Positions 6,777-48,837 of a DNA stretch of 64,000 bases are shown piece after piece. Source of the stretch: Elusimicrobiota bacterium (lineage in GTDB: Bacteria > Elusimicrobiota > Elusimicrobia > UBA1565 > UBA9628); contig JBIOJO010000011.1 in assembly GCA_044450965.1 (NCBI GenBank), forward strand, positions 13,091-77,090. The letters run 5' to 3'. A program made the translations under genes and the position numbers. The notes under the pieces were generated by a model that saw only the letters and a program-made list of their open reading frames with translations, was not told where the DNA came from and did not search any database. The first letter of the stretch is position 1. Each line of letters starts with the position of its first letter.

Positions 6777-7146
6777 CTTACCAAAATCGCCTGGCGGGGG
6801 GAGGGGTGTAGCCGCCGTTTTGGTTCTTTGCTTTTAAGCATCGCCCCCCGGTAACGGGCGAATATAAACAGCCTAATTACCCGAGCGTTGCCTTAAAAGC
6901 AGCGAACCAAAAACGGAGGCGTCCGGGCTCCGGTGTTAGTGCTTTTCAGCGGCGGCGGCAGCCTTTTTCTGTTGCTTCATCCAATCCTTGTTGAGAGGAG
7001 ATGCCGAGGGGGGCGGCGGGGGCCGCCATTATCGGCGTGATGTGCCGGGGTCATCAGAGGCATCCATCGGACAAATATAAGCCACTTCCCGATCGCGATG
7101 ATCACTGGGGCACATCAGGCCGATTTTGAAATAAACCGGCCTATCT

Positions 7147-7827
7147 TTAATGCTTTTCTTTCGTGCTTACCGATTTCACGGCTGCCTTCTGTTGTCTCTT
7201 GAGCCATTTCTTCCAATAAAAAATTTCTTCTTGGAAGGCCTTCTTTACTTCTGGAGAATCGACACTTTGATCGGTTAAGACGGCAGACACGGATTGATCG
7301 GGTTGACCTTTGGCATCATTCCTACCAGTAACTTGGACGGCTTTCTCAAGTTTCCCGTCAGTGCTGATTCGGAACCAATACGAAATCGCATCTTGCCCGG
7401 AAGATTTCCGCATATATGTGTAGAAGCAGGATGGGTGGGTTTTGGTTAGAGGGGTCGAATTGTCAGTATTAATGGAATATACGACTGCGCATTCGTGGTG
7501 TTCCCAGCTAGTTTTATTGCGAGGAGTTTCAACCTCGACCACCTTGATGGGTATGGAAGCTGGAAATCCGAGATGCGGATTTACGGACTCATCATCGAGT
7601 GTATCAGCCGTTCCTGCTTTCTGCAAATAATCGACGAGTTGCTGAACCCCGACTTCCTCATCTTTTACCGAATCCCTAAGAATATTTTGGCGAGGAGACT
7701 TGGAGTGCTCATCTGAGGGGGATGCTTTTTCGCCAGCCTTGACAGTAAGCGGAAGCAGCATCATACTAGCGAACAGGGAAATGATTGTGATGTTGTGGCG
7801 GCTATTGACGGATAATATGAATCTCAT
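7147..7827 (-). CDS. Secreted hypothetical protein encoded in an AT-rich island
   Basis: Start trimmed to MRFILSVNSRHNITIISLFASMMLLPLTVKA (signal peptide). Local GC about 45% versus ~70% genome background; no recognisable domain. Confidence 0.6.
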   Translation of the reverse strand: MRFILSVNSRHNITIISLFASMMLLPLTVKAGEKASPSDEHSKSPRQNILRDSVKDEEVGVQQLVDYLQKAGTADTLDDESVNPHLGFPASIPIKVVEVETPRNKTSWEHHECAVVYSINTDNSTPLTKTHPSCFYTYMRKSSGQDAISYWFRISTDGKLEKAVQVTGRNDAKGQPDQSVSAVLTDQSVDSPEVKKAFQEEIFYWKKWLKRQQKAAVKSVSTKEKH

Positions 7828-10039
7828 ATCGTTGGTTAATTGTAACACGCACGAATTGACCGTCAAGACCCATGCGCGGCGTGGAGTCAGACGAACAATA
7901 TTGATTTCTGCCTTGATATGTCTAGGACCCAGCGTCGCATTTGCTCGGAAGGGTTTGGATGTCGTGCTTGCGGAGACCCGTAATAATAAAACTGCAGACG
8001 GAGCGCTCGCAGCAAAAGCCAAAGCTCTTCAAGACCAAAATAACAATCTGGCAGATAATAAAGTAGTGGCGAATCAGCTTGCTGATATTCAATCAGAAAG
8101 AACGCAACGCGCGCAGCAGAGCTACGGATACGCTGATGAATATAAAGACAGCGGGGAGATGCAGCAACTCGCGGCGGATTACGCTGTTCAGCGGGGTGAG
8201 TGGGCTCAGGGCCGGACGTTCGCGGATCGAGCAGTCAATTTGGCCGGCAGCGACCCGGCGAAACTTCTTCTAGCGCTGGAATCCTCGGCAAAAGTCTCGT
8301 ATGAGATGAAAGATTATGCTCGGGCGGCGGCGGACGCCGAGCGCGGGCTCAAATTGAAACGGGACGATCCGAATCTTCAATTCATACTCCATGCTTCGAA
8401 GGGACGCGGGGCTGTAGGCGGCTCAGCAACTACTGCCGGAACGGCCGCTCCGGCTCAGAATTCGGCGACGCCGCCAGCCGCTATCAGCGATGTCCCGCGC
8501 GTGCGGATGACGGATATGCATGCGCTGGAAGCGAAGCCGTTCATCGATAAGTCCGACAATTTTCTGCGGTTGAAGGATTATCGCAGCGCGTTGAACGCGG
8601 CGATGAAGGCGGCGGCGCTGGATCCGAACAGCGGCGACGCGTATATGCATCAGGCGATCTCGCTGGCGGCGCTGAGGCAACTGGGGGAGGCGCTGAAGAT
8701 TTTGGACAAGGCGATCGCGGCGTTCTCCGCGAACGGGCCGCGCGACGCGCTGCCCGCGGCGCACAACCTGCGGGCTTCCTATAAAAATGAAGCGGGGGAT
8801 TACTCGGGGGCGAAGGCGGACGCCAGCGCGGCGGTGGGGATCAATCCGAAGTTCGCCGACGGGTATTACCAGCGTTCGCTCGCCGAGAAGAATCTGGGGG
8901 AGAAGGCGGAGGCGGCCTCGGATCTCAAGGAAGCGGCGACGTACGATCCGGAACGGTATCAGAGCCTCTATCTGGCAGCGGCCCGGGAAACGGAGGGCGC
9001 CGACGAGGCGGCCCAGCCGCGCCGAGGAGCGCCCTCGGCGTTTTCGCGGCTGACCGACGCGACGGGCGGCGGATTGTCGCTGCTGGTGGGCACGGCCGGA
9101 GCGCTGTTCGTGCTGTTCGCCGCGTACGTGTTCTTCTTCGCCAAGGACGGCTCCCGCATGCGGCGGTTCACGACGTGGTCCACGCCGGACGCGCGGCCCG
9201 CGCCCGCCGACGACGGCCCGCTGGCGATCAGCGCGAAGTACGCGCGCGGCCGCAAGGTCGGATCCGGCGGGATGGGCGACGTTTACGAGGGGAAGGACAA
9301 CGAGCTCCGCCGCCGCGTGGCCATCAAGAGCCTGCGCGCCGAGCTGCAGTCCCGCCCGCGGGAACGGGAGCGGTTCGTGGAGGAGGCGCGCAAGGTCGCC
9401 GCCCTTCATTATCCCAACATCATCGAGATCTACGACATCGTGCAGGCGGACGCGGGGACGTTCATCGTGTTCGAGTACGTGGAGGGCCAGACTTTGCACG
9501 ACGTGCGCAGCGAAAGCCCGCGGCGCCGGCTGGAGCCCAAGCAGGCGCTCAAGTATCTGCGCCAGGCCGCGGAGGCCGTGGATCACGCGCACGGCCGAGG
9601 CGTCGTGCACCGCGACCTGAAGCCGTCGAACATCATGATCGACGAGCACGGCCGGATCAAGGTCATGGACTTCGGCATCGCGCGCTTCGTCCAGGACACC
9701 ATGCGCGACATCCAGACCAACACCATCGTCGGCACCCCGCCCTACATGGCGCCGGAGCAGTCCTCCGGCAAGGTGACCAAGGCGTCGGACATCTATTCCC
9801 TGGCGGTGTCGTTCTACGAGATGCTGTCGGGGGAGCTGCCCTTCCGCGGCGACGACTTGAGCGCCAAGATCGGCCGCAGCTTCACGCCGCTGTCGCTACT
9901 GGTGCCCGGACTGCCTCCGGCCGCGGACGCCGTCGTGGCCAAGGCGCTGGATCCCGATCCGGAGAAGCGCCAGAAGACCTGCCTGGAGTTTTACGAGGAA
10001 GCGGCCGCCGCCTTCGACGAGAAGACGACCCCCGCCTGA
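7817..10039 (+). CDS. Ser/Thr protein kinase with N-terminal extracytoplasmic TPR-like sensor domain, one TM helix and C-terminal Hanks kinase domain
   Basis: Kinase motifs VAIK, HRDLKPSN, DFG, APE in the C-terminal third. TM segment LSLLVGTAGALFVLFAAYVFFFA. N-terminal signal-like RRTILISALICLGPSVAFA. Start is ambiguous: ATG 7817 overlaps the divergent gene; TTG 7856 is an alternative. Confidence 0.9.
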   Translation: MNLISLVNCNTHELTVKTHARRGVRRTILISALICLGPSVAFARKGLDVVLAETRNNKTADGALAAKAKALQDQNNNLADNKVVANQLADIQSERTQRAQQSYGYADEYKDSGEMQQLAADYAVQRGEWAQGRTFADRAVNLAGSDPAKLLLALESSAKVSYEMKDYARAAADAERGLKLKRDDPNLQFILHASKGRGAVGGSATTAGTAAPAQNSATPPAAISDVPRVRMTDMHALEAKPFIDKSDNFLRLKDYRSALNAAMKAAALDPNSGDAYMHQAISLAALRQLGEALKILDKAIAAFSANGPRDALPAAHNLRASYKNEAGDYSGAKADASAAVGINPKFADGYYQRSLAEKNLGEKAEAASDLKEAATYDPERYQSLYLAAARETEGADEAAQPRRGAPSAFSRLTDATGGGLSLLVGTAGALFVLFAAYVFFFAKDGSRMRRFTTWSTPDARPAPADDGPLAISAKYARGRKVGSGGMGDVYEGKDNELRRRVAIKSLRAELQSRPRERERFVEEARKVAALHYPNIIEIYDIVQADAGTFIVFEYVEGQTLHDVRSESPRRRLEPKQALKYLRQAAEAVDHAHGRGVVHRDLKPSNIMIDEHGRIKVMDFGIARFVQDTMRDIQTNTIVGTPPYMAPEQSSGKVTKASDIYSLAVSFYEMLSGELPFRGDDLSAKIGRSFTPLSLLVPGLPPAADAVVAKALDPDPEKRQKTCLEFYEEAAAAFDEKTTPA

Positions 10040-10046
10040 GACGCGC

Positions 10047-10847
10047 CTACTTCGTCCCGGATTGGACCGAGAGGAAGTCGAAGTAGGCCATCAGGTCGTT
10101 CAGGTCGCGCGAGTCCAGCTCGTCGAAGTCCGGCATCTTCGTGTGGCGGAACGCGGACGCGCGGTGGATGTATTCCTTGAGATGGTCCTTTTCGTGGTAG
10201 CGCGTGATCCCGCGCGGCTCGTTGAGGTCCGGGCCCACGGAGCCGCCCTGCCCGTTCATCGCGTGGCAGGAGATGCAGCGGGACTTGAAGATCGCCCAGC
10301 CCGCCGGCGCGCGCGAGCCCTGCGGCACGTTGCGCGGCACCGCCTTCGGGTACTCGTCCTCGATGATCGCCGGCTTCACGTTCAGGATCTGCCACGGCCA
10401 CGGATAGCCTTTCGCCGGCGTCTGCTCCGGCCCCGTCCAGACCAGGTAGAAAGGACCCGGCTTGGATTTTTCCTTCGGCATTTCTTCCCAGTTAGGCGCG
10501 TCCGCGTCCTCGAACGCGATCATCCCGCCGTCCTCGCTCAGCAGCGACGTCTTCGCGTGGGAGCGGTAGCCGTCCAGCGCCTCGAAGAAGAATTCCCCGA
10601 TTCCGTTCTCGATCCACGTCGGCCCGTACGCCGCCGTGAGCAGGTCCTTCACCGGGACCGCGCGATAATGCTTGAGCTTGCCGTAGAAGGGATCCTGCAC
10701 CTCGATCACGCGCATGCCTTTGCGCCCGCGCAGGTCCGCCGCGGTGACGCTGAGCGGCGTTTGGTCGCCGGAACGGAAGGAGAGGACCGGGTCGGCCGCG
10801 CGCGCCGGGGCCGCGATCAGCGCGAGGAGCAGGAGAAGGCCGTTCAT
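10047..10847 (-). CDS. Secreted c-type cytochrome domain protein
   Basis: Signal peptide MNGLLLLLALIAAPARA; single CISCH heme-binding motif in the C-terminal domain. Confidence 0.8.
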   Translation of the reverse strand: MNGLLLLLALIAAPARAADPVLSFRSGDQTPLSVTAADLRGRKGMRVIEVQDPFYGKLKHYRAVPVKDLLTAAYGPTWIENGIGEFFFEALDGYRSHAKTSLLSEDGGMIAFEDADAPNWEEMPKEKSKPGPFYLVWTGPEQTPAKGYPWPWQILNVKPAIIEDEYPKAVPRNVPQGSRAPAGWAIFKSRCISCHAMNGQGGSVGPDLNEPRGITRYHEKDHLKEYIHRASAFRHTKMPDFDELDSRDLNDLMAYFDFLSVQSGTK

Positions 10848-10869: not shown

Positions 10870-11310
10870 CTACTGCGGCATCAGGTCGGTCGAGCAGTTG
10901 GTCTGGCTGCAGGTCATCGTCGGCCGGGCGCCCGGCTCCACGTCGTAGGTGATCACGTACTGCGTGTAGGTGGCCACGTTCGTGTTTCGCGTGACCGTCG
11001 CTTTCCACGCCGGGCTGCCGGTGCCCGCGGCGAAGACCGGGGCGCTGAAATACTTCATGGTGGGAATCTGCATGTCCCAGCCGCTGCAGGCCGAGACGGC
11101 GCCGGTGCAGTAGCCGCCGGTGGCGGCCAGGTAGCGCTCCTGCGCGCCGCGGACGGAATCCAGAGTGGTCAGCGCTTCGCTGACCTTGCCCTTCTCGACG
11201 ACCTTGAAGTACTGGGGCACCGCGATCGCGGCCAGGATGCCGATGATCAGCACCACGACCAGCAATTCGATCAAAGTGAAGCCTTGGTTCGACCGGAAAC
11301 GTTTCGGCAT
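10870..11310 (-). CDS. Type IV pilin-like / pseudopilin protein (prepilin N-terminal methylation domain)
   Basis: Start trimmed to [34 protein letters not shown], the class III signal peptide motif G/FTLIE. Confidence 0.75.
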
Positions 11311-11368
11311 GAGGGTGCCTCTCAGTTTAATTGGCCGTCGAGGAAAATGATAGAAAAAAGAAAGACGC

Positions 11369-13147
11369 CTAAGGGCCATTTTTTAGCGAAACGACAGGAA
11401 AATAAAGTCCTTTGCGTTCCCGCTTCCACCAGGAGCCGTCGGCGCGGCGCTCGTCGGCGGTGGAGAAGCGCGTCGCCCAGACCGTCGCCCGGGCGTACAG
11501 GGGCTTTTCACTTCCCAGCGGCGAGGGCCCCATCAAGCTCTCCACCGGGGAGCCGCCCTGCAGCAGGCGGTAGATCAGGTTGTTCATCCACGGGCTGGGC
11601 GCGCCCAGCGAGGCGAACCACATCTGCCAGTCCAGACGGGGCATGTGCGGCGCCACGAAGGCGGGCGCGCGGCGCGGGTCTCCGGGTTTCCATAGGAACG
11701 GCCATTCGCGCCACTCATGGCCGTCGGCGGAGACCTCCACCATGATCTCGTCGCGGGAGGTCGTCATCACCGCGAACAGCCCGTAGGAATTGATGGAGCG
11801 CAGGGGCTCCGCGAAGGACAGGGCCCGCGGAAATAGGCTTCCCGTCAGCCACAGCGCGGCGAAGGTCGCCAGCGCCCGCGCCCGCCACGGCGAGGCGGCG
11901 CGGGGCACGGCCTTCGGCGCCCAGCGCGCCAGCCACGGGCGGGAGTCGTCCAGCGCGGACAGGCACAGCACGAGGGTCAGCAGGTTGAAGAAGCCGTAGT
12001 TCCCGGTGAGCGCGATCAGGAGCATGAGCGCGGCGATCAGCGCGGCGCCGAAGGCGCGGACGCGGCGCGGGCCCAGCAGCAGCCACGGCGCGCCCAGCTC
12101 CACGGCGAACATCAGCGCGCAGGACAGCTTTTGAACCCCGAGCGGCAGGCGGTTCGCCCACCAGGAGAGAGGCGACGGAAGCGGCTGGCTCCAGTAGTGG
12201 TAGGTCAGCGCGGTGAGATCCCGCCAAGCGGCGTCGCCGCTGAGTAGCTTGACCATCCCCGACTGCAGGATCAGCTTGAAAAGCAGGAGGCGCATCATCC
12301 ACAGAGCGCCGCGCGAGGTCGCCGTCCGCCGCCGCGGGTTCCACGCCCACGGCGCCAGGAAAAGGGCGATGAGTCCCGTCTCCAGGAGCAGGACGTCCCA
12401 CTGGTAGCCCATGAACTGGGAACCGACGCCGCACAACGACAGGTACAGCGCCCAGCACGCCAGCGCGCACGGACCCGCGGCGACGTTCAGGATCAGGCCC
12501 AGCGACGCCAACGCTCCGGCCCAGCACATTCCGACCAGCGCGGCGTCGGACGCGGAGAACCAGGCGAACGTCGGCAGGAGCCAGAAGCGTTCCGGCCCGA
12601 CCTGCTTCGCGGCCGCGTCGAGATACTGCGCCGCCGGAAGAAGGCCGTCATGTCCGATCAGGCCCCGGACCTGCACGCCCAAGGACCAGAAGGCCGCCAG
12701 GTAGCACAGCCCCAGGCCCGCCAGAAGAGCGCGGGAGGTTCCGTCCACGCGCGCGGGTACCGGGGAATCGCCCCAAAATATTTTCGTCAATCGTGAAAAC
12801 GCCGGACGGCGCGCCGCGACGAAGCGGTAGGCGGCTTCGCTGGCCGCGCGGAAGGGGGGCAGGCTCCTGTAGAAGAAAAGGCCCGCCCGGTAGGCGCCGC
12901 CGGCGCGGTCCAGGCTGCGGAAAACCGCCTCGGCGCCGCGGGAGATCGTCCCGTCCGGTTCAACCAGGTGAACGGCTTCGCCCAGGTCGGCGGGAGACAG
13001 CTTCGGGAAGCGCGCGGCGGCCTTCTGCGAGGGGAGGTACTCGACCGCGTCGCCGGTCGCCAGGCGCCAGCGCTCGATCCAGAGCCGGCAGAACCCGCAG
13101 TCGCCGTCGAAGACCAGGACGGGTTTGGAGGGCTTCATGGTTTTCAT
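11369..13147 (-). CDS. Fusion protein: DCC-family thiol-disulfide oxidoreductase (DUF393) N-domain plus lipase-maturation-factor (LMF1)-like polytopic membrane domain
   Basis: N-terminus [12 protein letters not shown] (DCC motif), followed by ~500 aa with many TM helices resembling LMF1-family proteins. Confidence 0.8.
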
Positions 13148-13834: not shown

Positions 13835-14039
13835 GAGCAGCATCGTTCAGGCGGTGAGGGACGCCGGCTCCGACCGCCAGGCGCTGGTGGGCGGCGTCGC
13901 CGACGTTCTGGCGCGGGACTTGAAGGAAACCGGCCGCAAGGGCGCCGGCCTGCTGAGCGCCGTCTCCGCGCTGGCCGCGTTGACGGCGGACCTGATCGCG
14001 GGCGTCGCCGTGATGCTGAAGGAGCGCGCCGGGTGCTAG
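13788..14039 (+). CDS. Possible small protein (83 aa) of unknown function
   Basis: ORF only. Overlaps the SLT 3' end in another frame, convergent with argH. Could be a GC artefact. Confidence 0.2.
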   Translation: MMNLMKRHDRSLLRAESSIVQAVRDAGSDRQALVGGVADVLARDLKETGRKGAGLLSAVSALAALTADLIAGVAVMLKERAGC

Positions 14040-15394
14040 TTCCGGCGCATCGCCGGCGCCAGGAGGGCGGACCAGGCGCCGTCCAACGCGCGCCGCCGCG
14101 TTTTTTCCCAAGCGCGCTCGCGCGCGGCGTCGGCGGCCAGCAGCTTCCAGTCGGGACGGCCCGGGGCTCCGGAGTAATCGGGAAGCGGGACGTCCGTCAC
14201 CGGGAGCGGCGCTCCGGTGCGCGCGCGCGCGGAGGCGGCGACCAGCCGGTACGCGTCGCGGAAAGGGGTGCCGGCGCGGACCAGGGCGACGGCTTCGTGC
14301 GTGGCCATGAGATCCTGGGTGACCGCGGCGGCGCAGGCGTCTTTGCGGATGTTCAGCGCGCCGGGCAGGCGCGCGGCCACGTCCAGCATCAACTCCATCG
14401 CGTCCAGGGCGGCGAACAGCGGGCCCTTGGTGAGCTGGTAGTCGCGGTGATAGCCGGATGGAAGCGCGCCGATCGCGAGGACCTGGCTCAGCCAGCCCGG
14501 GAACAGCGCCGCGCGCGCGCGCGTCAGCTCCACCACGTCGGGATTCTTCTTCTGCGGCATGATGCTGCTGCCGGTGGTGAAGGCGTCGGACAGCTTGGCG
14601 AAGCCGAACTCCGCGGAGGTGAACAGCGACAGATCCCAGGCCAGCACGCCTAAATCCCGCGCCAACAACGACAACGAAGAAAGAACCGCGGCTTCCAGCC
14701 GCGGTCTCGATGTCTGCACGCGCAAGGTGTTGCGCTGCACGCGGGAAAAGCCCAGAAGCTTGGCGACATGGGCCCGGTCGAGCGGGAGCATCACGCCGTA
14801 GCCGGCGGCGCTGCCCAGCGGGCACGCGTCGGCCTCGTCGAAGGCGAAGCGCAGGGCGCGCTGGCCGTCCCAGAGGGCCTCCGCGTGCGAGGCGGCCCAG
14901 TGGCCGATCGTCGTCGGCATGGCGCGCTGAAGGTGCGAGTAGCCGGGGATCACGGTCTTTTGATTGCGGGCGCCGAAGGCGGCCCAGGCGTCGGCCGCCG
15001 CGCCCGCTTGGGCGTGGAGCGCGAGAAGGCGGTCTTTCAGGAACAGGCGCAGGTTCACCTGGACCTGGTCGTTGCGGCTGCGGCCCGCGTGGATCTTCGC
15101 GCCGACGTCGCCGAGCGTCTTGGTCAGGCGCTGCTCGACGGCCGTGTGGACGTCCTCCTGCTCGCGGGTGACGGCGAAGGCGCCGGGACGCTCGTGCAGC
15201 TTGGTCAGTTCGGCACGCAGGGCGGAGAGCTCCTTCTTGGTCAGCACGCCGATCTTCGCCAGGCCGGCGGCGTGCGCCAAGGAACCGTAAACTTCGTAAC
15301 GAAGAAGGCGGGAGTCCAACTCCGGGTCGTTCCCAACGGTGTACGCCTCCACCGTGGCGTCCAGGTCCGTCTTCGTCTGCCAAAGCTTCTTCAT
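14036..15394 (-). CDS. argH: Argininosuccinate lyase
   Basis: Fumarate-lyase signature GSSIMPQKKNPD; 452 aa. ATGA overlap with the upstream M20 gene. Confidence 0.92.
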   Translation of the reverse strand: MKKLWQTKTDLDATVEAYTVGNDPELDSRLLRYEVYGSLAHAAGLAKIGVLTKKELSALRAELTKLHERPGAFAVTREQEDVHTAVEQRLTKTLGDVGAKIHAGRSRNDQVQVNLRLFLKDRLLALHAQAGAAADAWAAFGARNQKTVIPGYSHLQRAMPTTIGHWAASHAEALWDGQRALRFAFDEADACPLGSAAGYGVMLPLDRAHVAKLLGFSRVQRNTLRVQTSRPRLEAAVLSSLSLLARDLGVLAWDLSLFTSAEFGFAKLSDAFTTGSSIMPQKKNPDVVELTRARAALFPGWLSQVLAIGALPSGYHRDYQLTKGPLFAALDAMELMLDVAARLPGALNIRKDACAAAVTQDLMATHEAVALVRAGTPFRDAYRLVAASARARTGAPLPVTDVPLPDYSGAPGRPDWKLLAADAARERAWEKTRRRALDGAWSALLAPAMRRN

Positions 15395-16449
15395 TTCGCC
15401 GCCGCGTTCAGAAAATAGTTCCGGATCAGCTTCTCGTAAAATACGACGCCGGCCTCGAGCTCGGTCACTTCGAGGTATTCATCGGGAGTGTGGGAGCGCT
15501 TGGACTCGCCCGGCCCGGCCTTCACGGTGGGGATTCCCTTAAGAAACACCCAGTCGGACAAGGTCGGGGAGCCATACACCTTCGAACTGGGATTGGCGGC
15601 CAGCGCGGCGCGGACGACGGCGTGGGACGGATCGGTCTCGACGGACCCCAGCCTCGAGGAGCGAACGTGGACGGAGCCCTCGACGGAGGCCTTCACGGCG
15701 GAAATGATCTCCTCGGGAGAATAATTCGGGGTCGTGCGGATATCGACGACCAACTTGCAGCGGTCGGGGATGACGTTGTGGCGAGCGCCGCCGGAAATCT
15801 GGGTGACGCTCAAGGAAGGCGTGCCCAACGACGAATGGGATTTGTCGAAACGGATCTTGGACAAGGACAGCACGTCCCTCGCCGCGATCTCCACGGCGTT
15901 GATCCCTCCGCCGTGCGCCGCGTGCGCCGCCCTTCCGTTCGCCGTAATTTCTAAAACAATTAATCCCTTCTGCGCCACGGCGGGCCGCAATCCCGTCGGC
16001 TCGCCGACGACCGCGGCGTCGGGGCGGGGAAGTTCCGGAAGAAGCTTCTCCAGGCCCTGGCCGAGGACCTCCTCTTCACACGTCGCCGCCAGAAGCACGC
16101 GGCCTTTGGGCGCGTTCGTCTGGAAGGCCTTCGCCGCGCCCAAAATCATGGCGGTGAGACACCCCTTCGCGTCATTGGTCCCGCGCCCGTATATTTTTCC
16201 GTCCACGATGTCGGCCGCCAACGGGTTCTTCGTCCACTCCTCCCCGACGGGAACCGTGTCGGTATGGGAATTCAACATCAGCAGGGGACCCGGCCCGCCG
16301 TCGAAGGTCGCGGTCAGGTTGCGGCCGCGGCGCTCGGGCGTCAGGCCCAGGGTCCGGAACGCGTCCTCCAGGCGCGCGACGACCGCGTCCTCCTGGCCGC
16401 TGGGCGAGGGGATGCGGACGAGGTCCTGGAGGAGCGCGACCGCGTTCAT
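15391..16449 (-). CDS. M20-family deacylase (N-acetylornithine/N-acetylcitrulline deacetylase ArgE-like)
   Basis: M20 peptidase motifs (NSHTDTV, GRGTNDAKG). Sits between argB and argH in the arg operon. Confidence 0.8.
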   Translation of the reverse strand: MNAVALLQDLVRIPSPSGQEDAVVARLEDAFRTLGLTPERRGRNLTATFDGGPGPLLMLNSHTDTVPVGEEWTKNPLAADIVDGKIYGRGTNDAKGCLTAMILGAAKAFQTNAPKGRVLLAATCEEEVLGQGLEKLLPELPRPDAAVVGEPTGLRPAVAQKGLIVLEITANGRAAHAAHGGGINAVEIAARDVLSLSKIRFDKSHSSLGTPSLSVTQISGGARHNVIPDRCKLVVDIRTTPNYSPEEIISAVKASVEGSVHVRSSRLGSVETDPSHAVVRAALAANPSSKVYGSPTLSDWVFLKGIPTVKAGPGESKRSHTPDEYLEVTELEAGVVFYEKLIRNYFLNAAAK

Positions 16450-17396
16450 GCGGCGGCGGACTGCGTCTCGGTCGCGGCCAGCTCGGCCTGCTGGTAGGCC
16501 ACGCGCTCGCGCTTCTCGACGATCATGGTGCCGCAGCCGGCGTTGGTGAAGATCTCGCGCAGCAGGGCGCCGGGCTTGAGGCCGTTGATGATGTGGGTGC
16601 GGCGCACGCCGCCCTGGAGCGCGCGGATGCAGGCGTCGGCTTTCGGGAGCATGCCGCCGGTGAGGCGGCCCGCCTTCTTGAAGGACTCCACTTCCTCGAC
16701 GTCGGTGTAGGAGACCAGGCTTCCCGGGTTGCCCACGTCCTTGAGCAGGCCCTCGGTGTCGGTGACGACGACCAGCTTCTCGGCCTTCAGCGCGCGCGCC
16801 ACGGCCTCGGCGATGGAGTCGGCGTTGATGTTGAGGATGGTGCCGTCGTTGTCGCAGCCCAGGCAGGAGATCACGGGCGTCATGCCGGCGTCCAGCAGGT
16901 TGAGCAGCATCTTGGGGTCCACGGTCTCGATGTCGCCGACGAAGCCGAAGTCCACCTCGACCGGGGCCTCGCCGGGGTTCTTCTCCATGGAGCGCTTGGG
17001 GCGGCGCGACGCGGTGATCAGGTTGCCGTCCACGCCCGACACGCCGACGGCGGGCGTGTGGTGGGCGCGGAAGGAGGACAGGATGTCGATGTTGAGCGTG
17101 CCGGCGTAGACCATCTTGGCCACTTCCAGCATCTGCGCGTCGGTGATCCGTCGTCCGGCCACGAACTCGGGCTCAAGGCCCAGCTTGCGCGCCAGCTCCG
17201 TGGCCTGGTTGCCGCCGCCGTGCACCAGCACGATGCGGATGCCGACCTGTTGCAGGAGGCTGACGTCCTCGACGAGGGCGTCGAGCGTCTCCCGGCGGCC
17301 GACGACGCGGCCTCCGACCTTCACGACGAAGACCTTGCCCTTGTACATCCGGATGTAGGGAATGGCCTGCTTGAGCATGATGGGCGAGTCGGTCAT
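16446..17396 (-). CDS. argB: Acetylglutamate kinase
   Basis: Amino-acid kinase family; VVKVGG ... HGGG motifs. 316 aa after trimming the track ORF to MTDSPIML; ATGA-coupled. Confidence 0.9.
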   Translation of the reverse strand: MTDSPIMLKQAIPYIRMYKGKVFVVKVGGRVVGRRETLDALVEDVSLLQQVGIRIVLVHGGGNQATELARKLGLEPEFVAGRRITDAQMLEVAKMVYAGTLNIDILSSFRAHHTPAVGVSGVDGNLITASRRPKRSMEKNPGEAPVEVDFGFVGDIETVDPKMLLNLLDAGMTPVISCLGCDNDGTILNINADSIAEAVARALKAEKLVVVTDTEGLLKDVGNPGSLVSYTDVEEVESFKKAGRLTGGMLPKADACIRALQGGVRRTHIINGLKPGALLREIFTNAGCGTMIVEKRERVAYQQAELAATETQSAAA

Positions 17397-18454
17397 CGGG
17401 AGTGTCTCCTGGAAACGGCGGGGGTGTTTTTGACTTCGGGAGCGAGCAGGTGTAGCAGGACGGCTTTGGCGGCATGAAGGCGGTTCTCGGCCTCGTCGAT
17501 GACGACGGACCAGGGCCCGTCGAGGACCTCGTCGGCGACGACCATGTTGCGGCGCACGGGCAGGCAATGCATGAACAGGGCGTCCGAGGTCTTCTTCATC
17601 TTCGCCGCGGTCACCATCCACTTCGCGCGGAAGGCGGCGTCGGACGAAGGCGGTTGGCCGTAATTCGCCAGCGAGCCCCAAGATTTCGCGTATACGACAT
17701 GCTGTCCCTCGTATGCGGCCGGAACGTCGTCGGTGACCCGCAGGGTGGTCCCGGCCCGCGCGCAATTCTTTTCTACGCGGGCCATCACCTCGGGGTCGAG
17801 GTCGTAGCCCTGCGGTCTCGCGATGGTCACGTTCATGCCCGCCATGGAGGACATTTCCACCGCGGAATTCGGTACCGCCATGGGTAACGCCTTCACGTGC
17901 GGCGCCCAGGCCAGCAGGAAATTCTTCTTCTTGGGCGCAAAGCGCTCCTTGATGGTGGCCAGATCGGCGAGCGCCTGGCACGGATGGCCGCTGGCGGATT
18001 CCAGGTTGATCACCGGCACGGTGGAATATTTAAGAAAGGCCGCGAGCGGCCGTTCCTTCTTGTCCTCGTCCCATGAAGCGCCCGCCGGGAACGAGCGAAG
18101 CCCCAGTGCCGCGCAGAATCGGCCCAGCACGGGCACCGCTTCCTTGAGATGCTCCGCGGCGGTGCCGTCCATGACGACGCCTTCGACGGACTCCATGCCC
18201 CAGGTTCCGCCCGTGCCGCCGCCCAGGCTGAGAGTGATCGGATGCCCGCCAAGCGAAGCGGTCGCCACCTCGCTGGAGACCTGGGTCCGGAGGGAGGGAT
18301 TCATGTAGCAGAACGCCAGGCTTTTGCCGGCCAACGGGGCGTTCGTGGGATGCGATTTCTTCAAGGACAGGGCGAAATCGGCGAGAGCCAGAAGCTCCTC
18401 GCCGGTGAAGTCTTTCAGATGGGTGAAGTGTTTGATCTTGTTCACAATATTCAC
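17393..18454 (-). CDS. argF: N-acetyl/N-succinyl-ornithine carbamoyltransferase-type transcarbamylase (argF' type)
   Basis: Transcarbamylase fold with HCLP motif; carbamoyl-phosphate site SLRTQ instead of canonical STRTR; 353 aa. Such features are typical of the acylornithine transcarbamylases, but this was not verified by search. Confidence 0.8.
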   Translation of the reverse strand: MNIVNKIKHFTHLKDFTGEELLALADFALSLKKSHPTNAPLAGKSLAFCYMNPSLRTQVSSEVATASLGGHPITLSLGGGTGGTWGMESVEGVVMDGTAAEHLKEAVPVLGRFCAALGLRSFPAGASWDEDKKERPLAAFLKYSTVPVINLESASGHPCQALADLATIKERFAPKKKNFLLAWAPHVKALPMAVPNSAVEMSSMAGMNVTIARPQGYDLDPEVMARVEKNCARAGTTLRVTDDVPAAYEGQHVVYAKSWGSLANYGQPPSSDAAFRAKWMVTAAKMKKTSDALFMHCLPVRRNMVVADEVLDGPWSVVIDEAENRLHAAKAVLLHLLAPEVKNTPAVSRRHSR

Positions 18455-19638
18455 CGGGCAACTGTTGGCGCCAACAGTTGATCTTGCGCGAATATGTCCG
18501 CGAGTGCGTCCCGGAGCATCCCGATTTCGACCGCGCTCACGGTGAGCGGCGGCAGGAGGCGGATCACGTGGGGATCGTCGGCTCCGCCGACCAATATATT
18601 CTTGGCCAACAACGCGGCGCGGGCCGCCTTGGAGGGGCGGTCGAGAACGATTCCCAAGAGCAAACCTTTGCCCCGGATCTCCACGATCTGGGGGAAATCA
18701 AAAGTCTTACGGATCAACGCTTCCATGGCAGCGGCGTTATCCCAGAGCTTCTTATCCGAGATCGACTTCAAGGTCGCCGTGATGGCGACGGAGGCGAGCG
18801 GGCCGCCGCCGAACGTCGAACCCAGGGCGCCCGGCTTCACCTTTTTCGCGACTTCCGGAGCGGCGAGCACCGCTCCGGCCGGGACGCCTGAAGCCAGCGC
18901 TTTTGCAAATGTCTGCATCTGCGGCCGCGCGCCCCAGGCGTGGCGCGCGGAGCGGGCGCCGACGCGTCCTAATCCGGTTTGGACCTCATCAAAGATCAAG
19001 AGCGCGCCGGACTTCTCGCAGAGCGCCTGAAGGCCTTTCAAATATTCGCTCGTCGCCGTGGTGGCGCCTTGCACGCTTTGAATCGGTTCCAAAAGGAACG
19101 CGGCCGTGTTCGAATCGATCGCGGCTTTCGCCGCGGGGAGATCGCCGAAAGGCACATGAACGATGTCGGAGCCCAGCCCCGAGAGCCCCTTTCTGTATTT
19201 AGCGCCGGTGGCGGCCACAGCGGCCGCCGTGCGACCATGAAATCCACCTTCGGCCGCGATCACCTTGGCGCGCCCAGTCACGGACCGCGCTATGCGTAAC
19301 GCATTTTCATTCGCCTCGGCCCCGGAGTTGCAGAAAAACACCTGGGAGCCGTCCTCGCCGCAGAATTCCACCAGGGCTTTCGCGGCCTCGGCGCGCGCGC
19401 GGTTGTAGACGAGGTTCGAGTAGAACAGGAGCTTCTTGGACTGAGCGGCTATCGCATCGGAGATCTCCGCCGGGCTGTGACCCAATGCCGCCACGGCGTG
19501 TCCGCCATAGAGGTCTAGATATTTATTTCCGTTCTCGTCCCACACCCAGCAGCCCTCGCCGCGCTCCAGCGCGAACGGGAACTTCTCGTACGTGGGAAGG
19601 ACGTAGGCGTCTTCCAGCGCCATGGACTGTTTCATCAT
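18451..19638 (-). CDS. argD: Acetylornithine aminotransferase (class III PLP aminotransferase)
   Basis: Class-III aminotransferase motifs (LIFDEVQTG, TFGGGP). Start trimmed to MMKQSMALED. Confidence 0.9.
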   Translation of the reverse strand: MMKQSMALEDAYVLPTYEKFPFALERGEGCWVWDENGNKYLDLYGGHAVAALGHSPAEISDAIAAQSKKLLFYSNLVYNRARAEAAKALVEFCGEDGSQVFFCNSGAEANENALRIARSVTGRAKVIAAEGGFHGRTAAAVAATGAKYRKGLSGLGSDIVHVPFGDLPAAKAAIDSNTAAFLLEPIQSVQGATTATSEYLKGLQALCEKSGALLIFDEVQTGLGRVGARSARHAWGARPQMQTFAKALASGVPAGAVLAAPEVAKKVKPGALGSTFGGGPLASVAITATLKSISDKKLWDNAAAMEALIRKTFDFPQIVEIRGKGLLLGIVLDRPSKAARAALLAKNILVGGADDPHVIRLLPPLTVSAVEIGMLRDALADIFAQDQLLAPTVAR

Positions 19639-19643
19639 CGTCC

Positions 19644-20675
19644 TCAGGGGTAGTGGCCGGCGAAGGCCAGGCCTTCGCTTTCGTTCCAGCCCATCATCAC
19701 GTTCAGGTTCTGGACCGCCTGGCCGGAGGCGCCCTTGACCAGGTTGTCGATGGCGGCGATCACGCCGATGCGCCCTTCCGAGACGGTGACGAACACGTCG
19801 CAGTGGTTGCTGCCGTTGACCGCGTTCAGCGACGGCGGCTCGGTCACCAGGCGCACGAAGGTGCATCCTTTATAGGCGTCCCGGTACAGGTCCATCACCT
19901 TCTTCTCGGTCCAGCCCTTGGGCAGATCCACCTGGCACACCGCGTAGATCCCGCGCGCGAACGGCCCGGAGATGGGGATCAGCGAGAGTTTGAGCGCGGA
20001 GCCTCCCGACAGCCGGTCCAGGATCTGCTGGACCTCGGGAACGTGCTGGTGGACGAACGGCTTGTAGGCGCGCAGGTTCGCGTGCCGCGTGGGGTGGTGC
20101 GTGATCACCGACGGCGACGCGCCGGATCCCGACGAGCCGGTGACCGCGGTGACGGAGACGGTGCCGGCGATCTTTCCCTTGGCCAAGGGCCCGAGCGCGA
20201 GCGCGGTGGCCGTGGCGAAGCAGCCGGGGTTGGCGACCCAGCGCGACTTGGCGATCTCGGCGCGGTTGAGCTCCACCAGGCCGTAGGCGAACTTCTTCAA
20301 GAGGGCCGGCGCTTTGTGCGTGCGCGTGTACCAGCGCGGATAAAGCTCCGCGTCGCGGAGCCGGAAGTCGCCGGACAGGTCGATGATGCGCAGGCGCGGG
20401 CCGGTCTCGGCGATGATCGCCGGGACGTTGCCCATCGCGTCGCCGTGTCCGCCGGCCAGGAACAGGAAGTCCAGCTTCGCGTAATCCAGCTTGCGCGTGA
20501 AGGACAGGTCGGTGCGGCCGCGCAGGTTGGGATGCGCCAGGAACACCGGCTGGCCGGGAAAGGTGGCCGAGGTCGCCGCGGCGATCTCCACCTTCGGATG
20601 GCCGAGCAGCAGGCGGATCAGCTCTCCGCCCGCGAACCCCGCGCCGCCTTCGATGCCGACCCGTATCTTCTTCAT
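19644..20675 (-). CDS. argC: N-acetyl-gamma-glutamyl-phosphate reductase
   Basis: 343 aa. ArgC-like sequence with an active-site Cys in the NPGCFAT context. Confidence 0.9.
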   Translation of the reverse strand: MKKIRVGIEGGAGFAGGELIRLLLGHPKVEIAAATSATFPGQPVFLAHPNLRGRTDLSFTRKLDYAKLDFLFLAGGHGDAMGNVPAIIAETGPRLRIIDLSGDFRLRDAELYPRWYTRTHKAPALLKKFAYGLVELNRAEIAKSRWVANPGCFATATALALGPLAKGKIAGTVSVTAVTGSSGSGASPSVITHHPTRHANLRAYKPFVHQHVPEVQQILDRLSGGSALKLSLIPISGPFARGIYAVCQVDLPKGWTEKKVMDLYRDAYKGCTFVRLVTEPPSLNAVNGSNHCDVFVTVSEGRIGVIAAIDNLVKGASGQAVQNLNVMMGWNESEGLAFAGHYP

Positions 20676-21724
20676 GCCTTCACTCCCGAAAAAACGGCGT
20701 CCTCGACGAACTTGCCCAGCAGGTCGTACTCGATGCGCGCGTTCATGGCGCGCACGCCGATCTTATTCTCGATGAATTCCTTCCCGACGGCGTTGTCCGT
20801 GGCCGGGCCGGAAATCAGGTCCACCCGGCGCTTGAACGTGTTTTTGAACAATTCGACGGCGCCCCAGGCGGCCACGGGATCGTTGGCGCACATCAGATGG
20901 GCCGAGCCCGCGTTCATGAGTTCATCGTCGTGCAATATTTCCTGGACGCCGTACTCTCCCAGGATTCCGTCGCCGAGCTCGATGACCAAGACGTCGGGCT
21001 CTTCTTTGTTCAGCGCGTTGATCAATCCCTTGGCCACCGGGACCGACACCTTCCCGGTCGTGGACACCACTCCGGCGTCCGTGAAAGAGAGACTTTTGAT
21101 CGCGCCGCGGTCCACCATGCTCATCGTGTCGCGCAGGAGCGAGACGCCCGTTAATTTCGCGCCGCAGACCTTGTAGCCCTTGCGCGTCAGATACCGGATG
21201 ACCTCGCCGCAGGCGAAGGTCTTGCCGGCGTTCATGCACGTTCCGGCCACGTAGACGATCGGGGCCGATTTTTCCAGATGATCGGCCCACGGGATCGCTC
21301 CCGTCCGGATCGAAGCGGGCACGCCCACTCGTTCACCCAGATGGGGGAACGAGAGAATCTGTCCCAGAACCTCGGCCTGCAACGGTTTCCCCAATTCGAG
21401 ATTAACGGACGTGCATTTCCCGATGACTCCGCCGAGGTTCAGCACGTCGAGGCGGTCGCCCACCTTGATGACTTCAGGGACGATTCCGGCATAACCGCGG
21501 AGAGCCCGGCGCGTACCGAGAACGGCGGCGATCACGTCGCCGTCGTTCAACCCGATCATGCGGCCGTAGACGTCCTCGACCTGGTTGTAGACCGTCTTTG
21601 TCCCGTGGATCCTCACCGCCAGGACGTTTCCTTCCTGGGCATGGATGTCGTCGGACAGGAGCACTTCCCGGGGAATGCGTGCGTTGCGCGTGACCGACGC
21701 GATCTTATCGAGGGTGACTTTCAT
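20672..21724 (-). CDS. DUF1611-family protein (DgcN-like putative N-acyltransferase) embedded in the arg operon
   Basis: 350 aa after trimming. Resembles the DUF1611 family (P-loop-like region YVAGTCMNAGKTF). ATGA-coupled to argG upstream and argC downstream. No argA/argJ is present in the operon. Confidence 0.65.
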   Translation of the reverse strand: MKVTLDKIASVTRNARIPREVLLSDDIHAQEGNVLAVRIHGTKTVYNQVEDVYGRMIGLNDGDVIAAVLGTRRALRGYAGIVPEVIKVGDRLDVLNLGGVIGKCTSVNLELGKPLQAEVLGQILSFPHLGERVGVPASIRTGAIPWADHLEKSAPIVYVAGTCMNAGKTFACGEVIRYLTRKGYKVCGAKLTGVSLLRDTMSMVDRGAIKSLSFTDAGVVSTTGKVSVPVAKGLINALNKEEPDVLVIELGDGILGEYGVQEILHDDELMNAGSAHLMCANDPVAAWGAVELFKNTFKRRVDLISGPATDNAVGKEFIENKIGVRAMNARIEYDLLGKFVEDAVFSGVKA

Positions 21725-22950
21725 GAGGCGCTCCCGGCCGTCTCCGGCGTTTTCTCTCCGCGCGCGTGCGCTCGCGCGGCGAGTGTCATGGGCAGGGCGT
21801 GGAGCTTGGCGAAGCCCGCGGCCTCCGGCCCGGTCCACAGCCGCGTCGTCTCGCCGTACGTGGCGGCTCCGGCGACCATGCTGTACGGGCTCTTCAACCC
21901 CGTCACGTCGAAATGCCCGGCGCGCAGGCGCAGGCGCGCTTCGCCGGTGACGGCTTCCTGGCTGGAGGCGATCATGGCCTCGATGTCGCGCATCACCGGG
22001 TCGAAGTACAGGCCCTCGTGCAGCATCTGGCCGTAGAATTCGCCGATGTGATTCTTCCAGAACACCTGCCAACGGGTCAGGACCAGCTTCTCCAATTCGT
22101 TGTGCGCGGAAATCAGCATCAGCGGCGCCGGCGCCTCGAACGCGATGCGGCCCTTGATGCCCAGTATGGTGTCGCCCATGTGGATGCCGCGGCCGACCGC
22201 GTAGGTGCGTCCCAAGACGTGAAGAGCCTGGACCAGGGACACCCCGTCGAGTTTCTTGCCGTCCAGGGAGACGGGAACGCCTTTCTCGAAGCCCACAACG
22301 ACGTCTTGGCCTTTCGCGGGCGCCGTTTCTGACGCGGACGGGAAGGCCGAATCCGGAACTTCCGTCCACGGATCGTGCGTCGCGCCGCCGCCGACCGTCG
22401 TGCCCCAAAGACCGGCGTTCACGGAGTAAGAAACCGTTTTGGCCGGCACCGGCACGCCGAACTTCGCGAGATAGTCCGTCTCCTGCTGCCGCGACCAGCC
22501 CAGGTCCCGGATGGGCGTGTGCACCGTTATATTAGGAAGGAGCACCTGGAAAACCGCGTCGAAGCGGACCTGATCGTTGCCCGCGCCGGTGGAGCCGTGC
22601 GAGACGCCGTCGGCGGAGACTTCCTTCGCCACCCGGGCCACGACCTCGGCCTGGAGCACGCGCTCGGCGGAGACGGACAGGGGGTAGGCGCGGCCGCGCA
22701 GGATGTTGCCCTGGATCAGCGGCACCGCGAAGCGGGAGAACACCTCGGCCCGGCCGTCGATGGTGCGGTGCTCCACGGCGCCCAGGGACTTTGAGCGCGC
22801 CGCGATGGCGGCCAGCTCCTCGGGGCCGAAGCCGCCGGTGTCCACGGTCACGGTCAGGACGTCGGCGTTCAATTCCTTCTGCAGCCACAGCACGCAGAAC
22901 GTGGTGTCCAGTCCGCCGCTGAAGGCGAGGACGATCTTGGGCTTCTTCAT
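21721..22950 (-). CDS. argG: Argininosuccinate synthase
   Basis: PP-loop AFSGGLDTT; 409 aa. Confidence 0.92.
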   Translation of the reverse strand: MKKPKIVLAFSGGLDTTFCVLWLQKELNADVLTVTVDTGGFGPEELAAIAARSKSLGAVEHRTIDGRAEVFSRFAVPLIQGNILRGRAYPLSVSAERVLQAEVVARVAKEVSADGVSHGSTGAGNDQVRFDAVFQVLLPNITVHTPIRDLGWSRQQETDYLAKFGVPVPAKTVSYSVNAGLWGTTVGGGATHDPWTEVPDSAFPSASETAPAKGQDVVVGFEKGVPVSLDGKKLDGVSLVQALHVLGRTYAVGRGIHMGDTILGIKGRIAFEAPAPLMLISAHNELEKLVLTRWQVFWKNHIGEFYGQMLHEGLYFDPVMRDIEAMIASSQEAVTGEARLRLRAGHFDVTGLKSPYSMVAGAATYGETTRLWTGPEAAGFAKLHALPMTLAARAHARGEKTPETAGSAS

Positions 22951-22951
22951 A

Positions 22952-23413
22952 TCAGTGGGCCATCCTTGTTTCCAGGAATTCGATCAGCTTCTTCTGCGCG
23001 GCGCCGGAATCCGACGCGACGAACACCGTGTCGTCGCCGGCCAAGGTGCCGACCAGTCCCGTCATGTTCAAGCCGTCCAGCACCAGGCCCACGCGGGGCG
23101 CGGCGCCGGCGTCGCAGCGCACGACCGTCAGGTTGGGCCCGGCCGCGACGACGCTCCGGACGAAGGTGCGCAGGGGCATTTCGGGGTCGTGCGCGCCTCC
23201 TTCGGCGGTGGCGGCCTTGTAGGCGCCGGCCACCTTGATCAGGCCCAGCTCGGCGACGTCGCGCGAGATGGAGACCTGGGTGGCGGGGATTCCGCGCTTC
23301 TTCAGGGCGCGCACCAGATCGTTCTGCGTGGCGACCGCTTCTTGAGAAACTGCCTCGAGGATGGCGGTCTGCCGGGCGGACTTGCGGTCCTCGCGCGTCG
23401 CATATTTATTCAT
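22952..23413 (-). CDS. argR: Arginine repressor
   Basis: 153 aa; winged-helix N-domain plus C-terminal arginine-binding domain (GTLAGDDTVFV). First gene of the arg operon. Confidence 0.88.
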   Translation of the reverse strand: MNKYATREDRKSARQTAILEAVSQEAVATQNDLVRALKKRGIPATQVSISRDVAELGLIKVAGAYKAATAEGGAHDPEMPLRTFVRSVVAAGPNLTVVRCDAGAAPRVGLVLDGLNMTGLVGTLAGDDTVFVASDSGAAQKKLIEFLETRMAH

Positions 23414-23416
23414 AAC

Positions 23417-23434
23417 TATGAATAATTATACATA
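23417..23434 (+). promoter_or_regulatory. ARG box-like operator (TATGAATAATTATACATA) immediately upstream of the argR start
   Basis: Matches the E. coli ARG box consensus TNTGAATWWWWATTCANW with one mismatch. Sits in a short AT-rich patch 4 nt upstream of the argR ATG. Confidence 0.5.
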
Positions 23435-23474
23435 ACGGCGCGCGGACGTCAAGCGGTAAATTCGCGGGGAGGGC

Positions 23475-48393: not shown

Positions 48394-48837
48394 TCACTTG
48401 ATCAGGAGAGGATGGCGTTTGCCGATGAGGCCGTGGAGAAGAGATGAAAATTTCTTGGCCTCACGGACCAGTTCCGTGACTTCTTGCTCGGACGCGACCT
48501 CGGTTCCAAGGTATTCCGCCAGGTTTCTTTTGGACCGGCAGTCGTCCAGATAATCCAGCACGTGATGGTGCTCCGCGTCCATGAGCTTGCGCAGCGCCAT
48601 GAACACGGTATGGTGGTGGCCTTGGCCCGCGGTGCGGTACCCTTCCGCGGCGAGGAAGGCGCGTCCCGCCTGGAGCGCGGCATTGTAGGCGATCGTGAGG
48701 CGGCGATCCTCGGAGAGACCCTTCACATGCGCATCGGCCAGATCGCGCTTGACGACGTCGAACAGCTTGCCGATTTCCTCGGCGGTCGCCTTATGAGGCT
48801 TAAGACGGCCCGAGTCCAAGAACTCTTGTAAACTCAT
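48394..48837 (-). CDS. HEPN-domain protein (nucleotidyltransferase substrate-binding-like), cognate partner of the upstream NTase
   Basis: All-helical ~147 aa with HEPN-like features. Directly follows, and overlaps, the NTase gene. Confidence 0.6.
   Translation of the reverse strand: MSLQEFLDSGRLKPHKATAEEIGKLFDVVKRDLADAHVKGLSEDRRLTIAYNAALQAGRAFLAAEGYRTAGQGHHHTVFMALRKLMDAEHHHVLDYLDDCRSKRNLAEYLGTEVASEQEVTELVREAKKFSSLLHGLIGKRHPLLIK

Follow-up and report, generated by a model that had tools for sequence, protein, structure and literature searches.

A putative N-succinylglutamate synthase gene in the arginine operon of an Elusimicrobiota bacterium

Which gene product acylates glutamate in an arginine operon that contains neither argA nor argJ? 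The question is raised by a stretch of 64,000 nucleotides from an Elusimicrobiota bacterium (contig JBIOJO010000011.1 of assembly GCA_044450965.1), referred to below as the window. On its minus strand, from position 23413 to 14036, lie nine tightly packed genes, several of them overlapping by 4 bases, in the order argR-argG-X-argC-argD-argF'-argB-argE'-argH. Gene X (20672-21724, minus strand) encodes 350 amino acids followed by a stop codon and is the sole gene of the operon without an assignment: comparison with Pfam and NCBIfam identified the other eight but returned no family for X at E<0.01 or above threshold, and no match was found among the sequences of the Protein Data Bank (PDB). All other steps leading from N-acylglutamate to arginine are encoded. 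Our analysis suggests that X probably makes N-succinylglutamate and designates it a candidate N-succinyl-L-glutamate synthase. A preliminary description of this DNA had given the same gene order, which was borne out by the identification of the eight arg genes, and had named X a strong candidate for the missing glutamate-acylation gene. The latter proposal finds support in the arg synteny, in the status of X as sole unassigned gene, in its likeness to DgcN and in an independent published prediction for what seems to be the same family.

Gene X and its homologues in arginine operons

The initiation codon of X shares the tetranucleotide ATGA with the argG stop codon (ctcATGAaag), and its own TGA stop codon shares another with the argC start (gcATGAaga); these overlaps fit the translational coupling on both sides that had been proposed for X. 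A GGAG motif lies 7 nt 5' of the X start codon. When Escherichia coli ArgA was used as a tblastn query, its GNAT (GCN5-related N-acetyltransferase) part remained unmatched in the 64-kb window and within 10 kb of X in 85 loci, the only matches being to the kinase domain of argB. The argB gene itself (16446-17390, minus strand) encodes an N-acylglutamate kinase of 314 residues (TIGR00761, 230 bits against a cut-off of 151) with PF00696 only and no acetyltransferase domain. Ten further window open reading frames (ORFs) of suitable size contained no GNAT or ArgJ. Thus, the earlier statement that the operon lacks both argA and argJ was upheld by the Pfam, NCBIfam and tblastn comparisons.

The genomic context of X was analyzed in one genome per species, with a 20-sequence alignment as query; the best 80 of at least 594 loci were examined and the neighbours of X were called by tblastn with the arg proteins of the window. 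Most of these 80 loci belong to Gemmatimonadota; the others come from Elusimicrobiota, Planctomycetota, Myxococcota, Acidobacteriota, Bdellovibrionales and unclassified "proteobacterial" genomes, so that at least six phyla are represented. In every one of them the X homologue directly adjoins an arg gene. The argC gene follows X directly at 74 of the 80 loci, the contig ending after X at another four, and the commonest order is argG-X-argC-argD-argF'-argB-argE'-argH-argR. The co-occurrence with argF' that the preliminary description had suggested looking into was thereby followed with X homologues, and 62 linked ArgF' proteins could be scored (see below). More distant relatives, at 32-49% identity, showed similar surroundings. 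A homologue with 48% identity (locus L081) is still found in an arg operon. Two from Planctomycetota with 35% identity (L082 and L083) lie in the arrangement argR-argG-argH-X-argC-argD-argF'-argB, one with 32% identity (L084) in argG-X-argF', and one with 33% identity (L088) in carA-carB-argG-argF'-X-argC-argB-[AstE domain fused to ArgH]-argD.

The idea is already published as a prediction for what appears to be the family of X. In Appendix 2 of the GapMind-2026 preprint of Price et al., ACG33_RS14135 (A0A127FCT3) of Steroidobacter is predicted to be an N-succinylglutamate synthase, and it is listed in GapMind as a predicted ArgA (10.1101/2024.10.14.618325). According to the same source, Steroidobacter, in which no ArgA can be recognised, grows in minimal medium; the homologues of ACG33_RS14135 are virtually always found in arg operons and never occur together with Pseudomonas ArgA homologues in one genome. 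The ArgF' proteins encoded next to them have A, P, S or V at position 92 in 90% of the cases (10.1101/2024.10.14.618325).

Relatives of X were also seen outside arginine clusters. A paralogue with approximately 33% identity (L085:967-2097, plus strand; E 1e-35) has both domains of X and lies in a phosphonate biosynthesis cluster, its neighbours being a phosphoenolpyruvate mutase, a methyltransferase and a thiamine-diphosphate decarboxylase that is split. On an archaeal-looking contig (L091:7132-10136), two X-like paralogues lie side by side (8001-9092, plus strand, and 9081-10136, minus strand); the first of these overlaps by 4 nt a gene whose product is an alpha-L-glutamate ligase of the RimK family (TIGR00768, 205 bits; the LysX and MptN models remained under their cut-offs). 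A homologue with 32% identity (L089:8001-9047, plus strand) has no arg context and lies on a 3.4-Mb contig (GCA_016097325.1) that looks eukaryotic from its gene spacing and intron-like ranges, next to genes with LysM, ankyrin, LPMO_10 and lipase domains.

Some X-containing operons carry additional elements. An alpha/beta-hydrolase gene (PF00561/PF12697) was found inside three of them (L010:13264-14052, L034:13290-14069 and L076:9019-9951, plus strand), inserted in the gap between argD and argF' in two cases and in that between argG and X in one. The presence of a LysW-like carrier beside X was considered and rejected, as the X-argC gaps of eight loci, read in three frames, contained no zinc-ribbon or small conserved ORF but only heptamer repeats. 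In the Gemmatimonadales gap (L019:11044-11142; also L016 and L020) these form arrays of GAGTCAC (x4.9) and of GACTCTC/GACTCGC (x7.7); the core of the first, GAGTC, is the reverse complement of that of the second, GACTC, making a long hairpin possible.

Identity of the acyl group

The nature of the acyl group could be approached through the carbamoyltransferase. Where the Xanthomonas N-acetylornithine transcarbamylase (AOTCase) has Glu92, Asn185 and Lys302, N-succinylornithine transcarbamylases (SOTCases) have A/S/P/V/Q, P and V/I/E, respectively (PMC4581275). The argF' gene of the window (17393-18454, minus strand) encodes a knotted N-acylornithine carbamoyltransferase (NF003384, 381 bits against a cut-off of 288). 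Its alignment to the X. campestris AOTCase places Ala, Pro and Val at the three positions, which is the SOTCase signature, and among PDB entries it is matched best by 3l02, the E92A mutant. The same holds at the other loci: in all 62 X-linked ArgF' proteins scored, position 92 is V, A, P, I, S or T, position 185 is Pro and position 302 is E, V or I, with Glu92 never present. Since ArgF' has SOTCase-type residues at the signature positions, the acyl group in the X pathway would be succinyl, not acetyl. The name "N-acetylornithine carbamoyltransferase" that NCBIfam gives to the window ArgF' is probably wrong, and the same misnaming is on record for the Bacteroides SOTCase (PMC7311316).

A second line of evidence came from locus L088, whose ArgF' signature is P-P-E. 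This cluster encodes a 735-residue fusion (L088:10869-13076, plus strand) of a domain of the succinylglutamate-desuccinylase/aspartoacylase (AstE) family with argininosuccinate lyase. The AstE-type domain matches NF003706 (E 1.6e-20) and TIGR03242 (E 8.5e-18), and the fusion probably represents an alternative N-succinylcitrulline desuccinylase. It is independent support for succinylated intermediates. In the window, the corresponding role is presumably played by argE' (15391-16449, minus strand), an M20 deacylase of the ArgE/DapE family with 352 residues (PF01546 and PF07687; TIGR01910, 180 bits, under the cut-off of 218), whose substrate is presumed to be N-succinylcitrulline.

One might object that X transfers another group, acetyl or another short dicarboxyl, and that the ArgF' signature is misleading in these phyla. 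The NCBIfam name of ArgF' and the acetyl donor used by DgcN would agree with this, and the position-92 rule is based on two enzymes only. We nevertheless regard this possibility as very improbable, given that every linked ArgF' carries SOTCase-type residues at the three discriminating positions, that the closest match in the PDB is to the E92A variant, that L088 has a desuccinylase-family domain and that the Bacteroides enzyme has been misnamed in the same way. Where the preliminary description allowed either an N-acetyl or an N-succinyl product, the succinyl half of the statement is thus retained, on the strength of the SOTCase residues, and the acetyl half is dropped.

Together, the genes of the operon would specify a linear, Bacteroides-type succinylated pathway expressed from a single ArgR-repressed promoter. 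X would commit glutamate to arginine synthesis in the first step, by converting L-glutamate to N-succinyl-L-glutamate. The ArgB kinase, the ArgC reductase and the ArgD transaminase would then act on succinylated intermediates, followed by ArgF' as N-succinylornithine carbamoyltransferase; ArgE' would hydrolyse N-succinylcitrulline, and ArgG and ArgH would complete the synthesis. Since such a pathway is linear and ends with a hydrolytic deacylase, it needs a stoichiometric first enzyme. In E. coli, the enzymes ArgB to ArgE work on acetylated intermediates, and N-succinylglutamate is hydrolysed by AstE.

Fold of X and the reaction it may catalyse

Homologues of X numbered 5747 at E<=1e-3 in a 90%-identity database, all of them unnamed or labelled "hypothetical protein", and the family comprised 1563 clusters at 50% identity. 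An AlphaFold2 model of X, built on 25 homologues, had a mean pLDDT (predicted local distance difference test score) of 91 and a pTM (predicted template modelling score) of 0.89. It consists of an N-terminal all-beta domain (residues 1-150; 21275-21724, minus strand) and a C-terminal alpha/beta P-loop domain of the SIMIBI type (residues 155-350, or 155-345 in the model; 20672-21262, minus strand), the latter assigned by Foldseek, profile search and hhalign. The P-loop, G161-T-C-M-N-A-G167-K168-T169 (21218-21244, minus strand), is of the dethiobiotin-synthetase/CobQ type (GTxxxxGKT) and aligns to GTDTEVGKT of BioD, with T11, K15 and T16. This two-domain fold includes no GNAT domain, and no Acetyltransf family matched X at E<=10.

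The relationship of X to DUF1611, the family of DgcN, proved distant. At E<=10 in Pfam only residues 151-191 found matches, all of them sub-threshold: DUF1611_C scored 13.0 bits (E 0.069) against a cut-off of 25, over 39 P-loop residues (151-189), tying with CbiA (E 0.069) and followed by AAA_26 (E 0.19). The N-terminal domain matched no Pfam N-terminal family even at E<=10 and, when modelled alone (pLDDT 82), had no Foldseek match in the PDB, the DgcN structure 7xrj included (best E 0.64, TM <0.25). The DUF1611_N domain is a Rossmann-like alpha/beta domain. Because its score lies below the Pfam threshold and its N-terminal domain is different, X is not a DUF1611 member but a distinct family within the SIMIBI/dethiobiotin-synthetase-like superfamily, remotely related to DUF1611/DgcN. 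The label "DUF1611-like" initially given to X therefore holds in a weak sense only.

Matches of X to PDB structures in Foldseek were confined to the C-terminal domain and included SRP54/FtsY of the signal recognition particle (SRP) system, HypB, DgcN and dethiobiotin synthetase, with E values from 1e-6 to 1e-5. DgcN (7xrj) ranked eighth (E 4.9e-6, TM 0.36-0.38, root-mean-square deviation (rmsd) 5.5 Å, 13% identity). Conservation was scored in 61 diverse members of the family, approximately 30% identical. Residues P83, G167, K168, K190 and E249 are invariant, and E50, R72, T169, D199, D216 and D282 are among those nearly so; no cysteine is found in either class of columns. Within the N-terminal domain, conservation extends to S10, G32, E50, G70-x-R72, G80, P83 and the motif L95-N-x-G-G99. 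We propose a tentative picture of the active site, in which the all-beta domain would hold glutamate and the acyl group by way of the conserved E50 and R72, and the P-loop would grip the nucleotide-diphosphate part of coenzyme A (CoA). By analogy with DgcN, the only characterised relative to acylate glutamate, the donor would most likely be succinyl-CoA; that X both makes N-succinylglutamate and draws on this donor appears to us an evenly balanced proposition.

Some of the invariant residues also lend themselves to a different chemistry. X could be an ATP-dependent succinate:L-glutamate amide ligase that forms the same product: the P-loop would phosphorylate the succinate carboxylate and glutamate would attack with its alpha-amino group, as in dethiobiotin synthetase, CobB/CobQ and CTP synthase. 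The succinate freed by ArgE' would be reused directly by such an enzyme. With a profile of the 61 members, the best solved relative was indeed the BioD of Mycobacterium tuberculosis (E 1.4e-4 over 49 residues), 7xrj being absent even at E<=10. Alignment of the family to E. coli BioD with hhalign (probability 72%, E 3.3e-5, 101 columns) sets K168/T169 on the catalytic K15/T16, K190 on K37 and E249 (in ELGDG) on E115 (in EGAGG), and these residues of X belong to the few invariant or nearly invariant positions. The whole catalytic set of dethiobiotin synthetase is retained in X. However, the hhalign probability is modest, and P-loop, lysine and acidic residues are common to the whole SIMIBI class, presumably DgcN too, so that they do not discriminate between donors. 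Furthermore, N-acylation of glutamate is known for a single relative, DgcN, and that enzyme is described as an acetyltransferase (PDB title of 7XRJ; 10.1101/2024.10.14.618325). We consider the ligase an unlikely alternative, though one deserving attention. Equally doubtful, at present, is the broader notion that X founds a class of succinate:glutamate ligases driven by ATP and dispensing with acyl-CoA, in a superfamily forming glutamate-type amide bonds elsewhere (as at L085 and L091).

Several points weigh against a synthase role for X. The likeness between X and DgcN is confined to the P-loop domain, where it is no better than that to SRP GTPases or HypB, and the function of X is one that we infer. 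Membership of X in the family of ACG33_RS14135, almost certain because every descriptor matches, was judged from descriptors, not from alignment, and ACG33_RS14135 did not turn up in the homologue searches with X, some of them seeded with proteobacterial members, nor in cluster look-ups of 20 representatives. As the chief observation against the hypothesis, the X-containing operon of L081 encodes, between argE' and argH, a 167-residue GNAT (L081:16258-16761, plus strand) that resembles short N-acetylglutamate synthases (NAGS) and the C-terminal domain of ArgH(A) (NF005840, E 1.4e-29; PRK12308, E 2e-19). Since this operon carries both genes, X and a conventional N-acylglutamate synthase candidate can coexist in one operon. 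A GNAT of this type is present in one of the 85 loci, and no homologue was found in the window or in the 80 loci.

In the light of these points, X might be an accessory nucleotide-binding protein, such as a metallochaperone for a metal-dependent deacylase, a scaffold or a regulator, with a GNAT or ArgJ encoded elsewhere acylating glutamate. The presence of HypB, a metallochaperone NTPase, and of SRP GTPases among the top Foldseek matches would fit this idea, as would the pairing of X with a short-NAGS-like GNAT in L081; in this genome, the searches covered the 64-kb window. Yet X is retained in clusters with no nearby M20 deacylase (L011, L076 and L084) or with a deacylase of another family (L088), it has no family-wide conserved cysteine in the 61 members, and its N-terminal domain, which is large and strongly conserved, has the look of a module for substrate binding. 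The GNAT occurs at a single locus out of 85, Steroidobacter grows on minimal medium without an ArgA-like protein (10.1101/2024.10.14.618325), and the pathway would still need its first enzyme. An accessory function appears improbable on these grounds. The metallochaperone variant suggested by the HypB match was itself rated unlikely, for the persistence of X without M20 deacylase and the lack of a conserved cysteine. A second acyltransferase near the operon was rejected, the ArgA search, the search with the L081 GNAT and the scan of ten ORFs having yielded no such gene.

If X is indeed a glutamate-succinylating enzyme, it fills an acknowledged gap, namely the enzyme for this step outside Bacteroidetes (PMC4490483). 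Present annotation in the phyla concerned leaves the first step missing and misnames ArgF' as an acetylornithine enzyme; arginine prototrophy could then be called correctly in phyla that are mostly uncultured, among them Elusimicrobiota, Gemmatimonadota, Planctomycetota and Myxococcota. A function would also be gained for a family that counts more than 1500 sequence clusters and has no Pfam model. N-acylglutamate synthesis would have a second, non-homologous solution, based on a P-loop fold instead of GNAT; X would stand in for the GNAT of an otherwise similar Bacteroides-type pathway, and its chemistry may be unusual.

The remaining operon and comparison with known systems

Upstream from argR lies a sigma-70-like promoter (23425-23452, minus strand) with a TTGACG -35 motif, a 16-nt spacer and a TATAAT -10 motif, matching at 11 of 12 positions; it is the only strong promoter of this type between positions 13600 and 23600. 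Two palindromes resembling ARG boxes, TGTATAATTATTCA and TGAATAAATATGCG (23399-23432, minus strand), each with one mismatch to TGMATWWWWATKCA, overlap the -10 hexamer and the argR start codon. The window contains three ARG-box-like matches against 0.45 expected by chance; the third, weaker one (8137-8150, two mismatches) lies inside an ORF of 779 codons and is probably fortuitous. The arrangement supports a putative control of the operon by ArgR, including autoregulation, from one promoter, in line with the argR-controlled operon of the preliminary description.

The product of argR (22952-23413, minus strand) is an arginine repressor of 153 residues (PF01316 and PF02863, each at approximately E 4e-14; TIGR01529, E 1.6e-26). 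It is followed on the same strand by argG (21721-22950), encoding argininosuccinate synthase (409 residues; TIGR00032, 311 bits against a cut-off of 268). Downstream from X lie argC (19644-20675; TIGR01850, 350 bits against 234) and argD (18451-19635), an N-acylornithine aminotransferase of 394 residues (PF00202, E 1e-90; TIGR00707, 350 bits). The last gene, argH (14036-15394), encodes an argininosuccinate lyase of 452 residues (TIGR00838, 313 bits against 280).

The window has a G+C content of approximately 67%, and the nearest relatives of its genes are found in metagenome-assembled genomes of Elusimicrobiota. Its lowest-G+C stretch (0.55) is at 6001-8000. Downstream from the arg operon region, a type IV pilin-like gene with the N-terminal motif FTLIELLVV (10870-11379, minus strand) adjoins the gene for a 592-residue membrane protein. 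A toxin-antitoxin-like pair of the HEPN/MNT (minimal nucleotidyltransferase) type, made of two overlapping genes, one for a HEPN domain (PF18726) and the other for a nucleotidyltransferase domain (PF01909), occupies 48394-49405 on the minus strand, in a stretch of lower G+C (0.61).

Enzymes for the first step are on record for some pathways that use ArgF'. The enzyme that succinylates glutamate was unidentified in 2015, at which time a bifunctional NAGS/kinase (NAGS/K) was given as the first-step enzyme of Xanthomonas (PMC4490483); in Bacteroidetes, the GNAT BT3761 has since been proposed as N-succinylglutamate synthase (PMC7311316). These two cases go against the preliminary remark that the first-step enzyme is often unassigned in argF' pathways. 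GNATs of the BT3761/Cabys_1732 type share with X the proposed reaction, the succinylated pathway and the location of the gene in an arg operon (PMC7311316). BT3761, ArgA and the short NAGS enzymes have the GNAT fold, whereas X has none, so that X would be an analogous, non-homologous replacement.

ACG33_RS14135 is close to X in its setting. Both are hypothetical proteins encoded in clusters with argB, argC, argD, argF', argG, argH and argR, and both give a weak Foldseek match to 7XRJ, with an rmsd of 5.6 Å for ACG33_RS14135 and 5.5 Å for X. They come from different phyla, and the Steroidobacter cluster is without ArgE, whereas the operon of the window has the M20 deacylase ArgE'.

DgcN (7XRJ) is a D-glutamate N-acetyltransferase of the DUF1611 family, made of PF07755 and DUF1611_N (PDB title; 10.1101/2024.10.14.618325). 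X resembles it in the fold of the SIMIBI P-loop domain, with its GTxxxxGK[ST] loop, and in the N-acylation of glutamate at its alpha-amino group, which is predicted for X. It departs from DgcN in its all-beta N-terminal domain without a solved relative and in its score below the DUF1611_C threshold; in addition, X is predicted to use L- instead of D-glutamate, to transfer succinyl instead of acetyl, and to serve anabolism instead of catabolism. BioD and the CobQ/CobB amidoligases likewise have a P-loop, a lysine after strand 2 and an acidic ExGxG motif that align to the invariant residues of X, but they lack the N-terminal beta domain, act on other substrates and use ATP. LysX/ArgX with the LysW carrier constitutes another non-acetyl protection of the glutamate amino group in arginine synthesis (PMC4490483). 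That system relies on an ATP-grasp ligase and a carrier protein, whereas no LysW-like small ORF adjoins X, and the ArgF' found here acts on a small N-acyl-ornithine.

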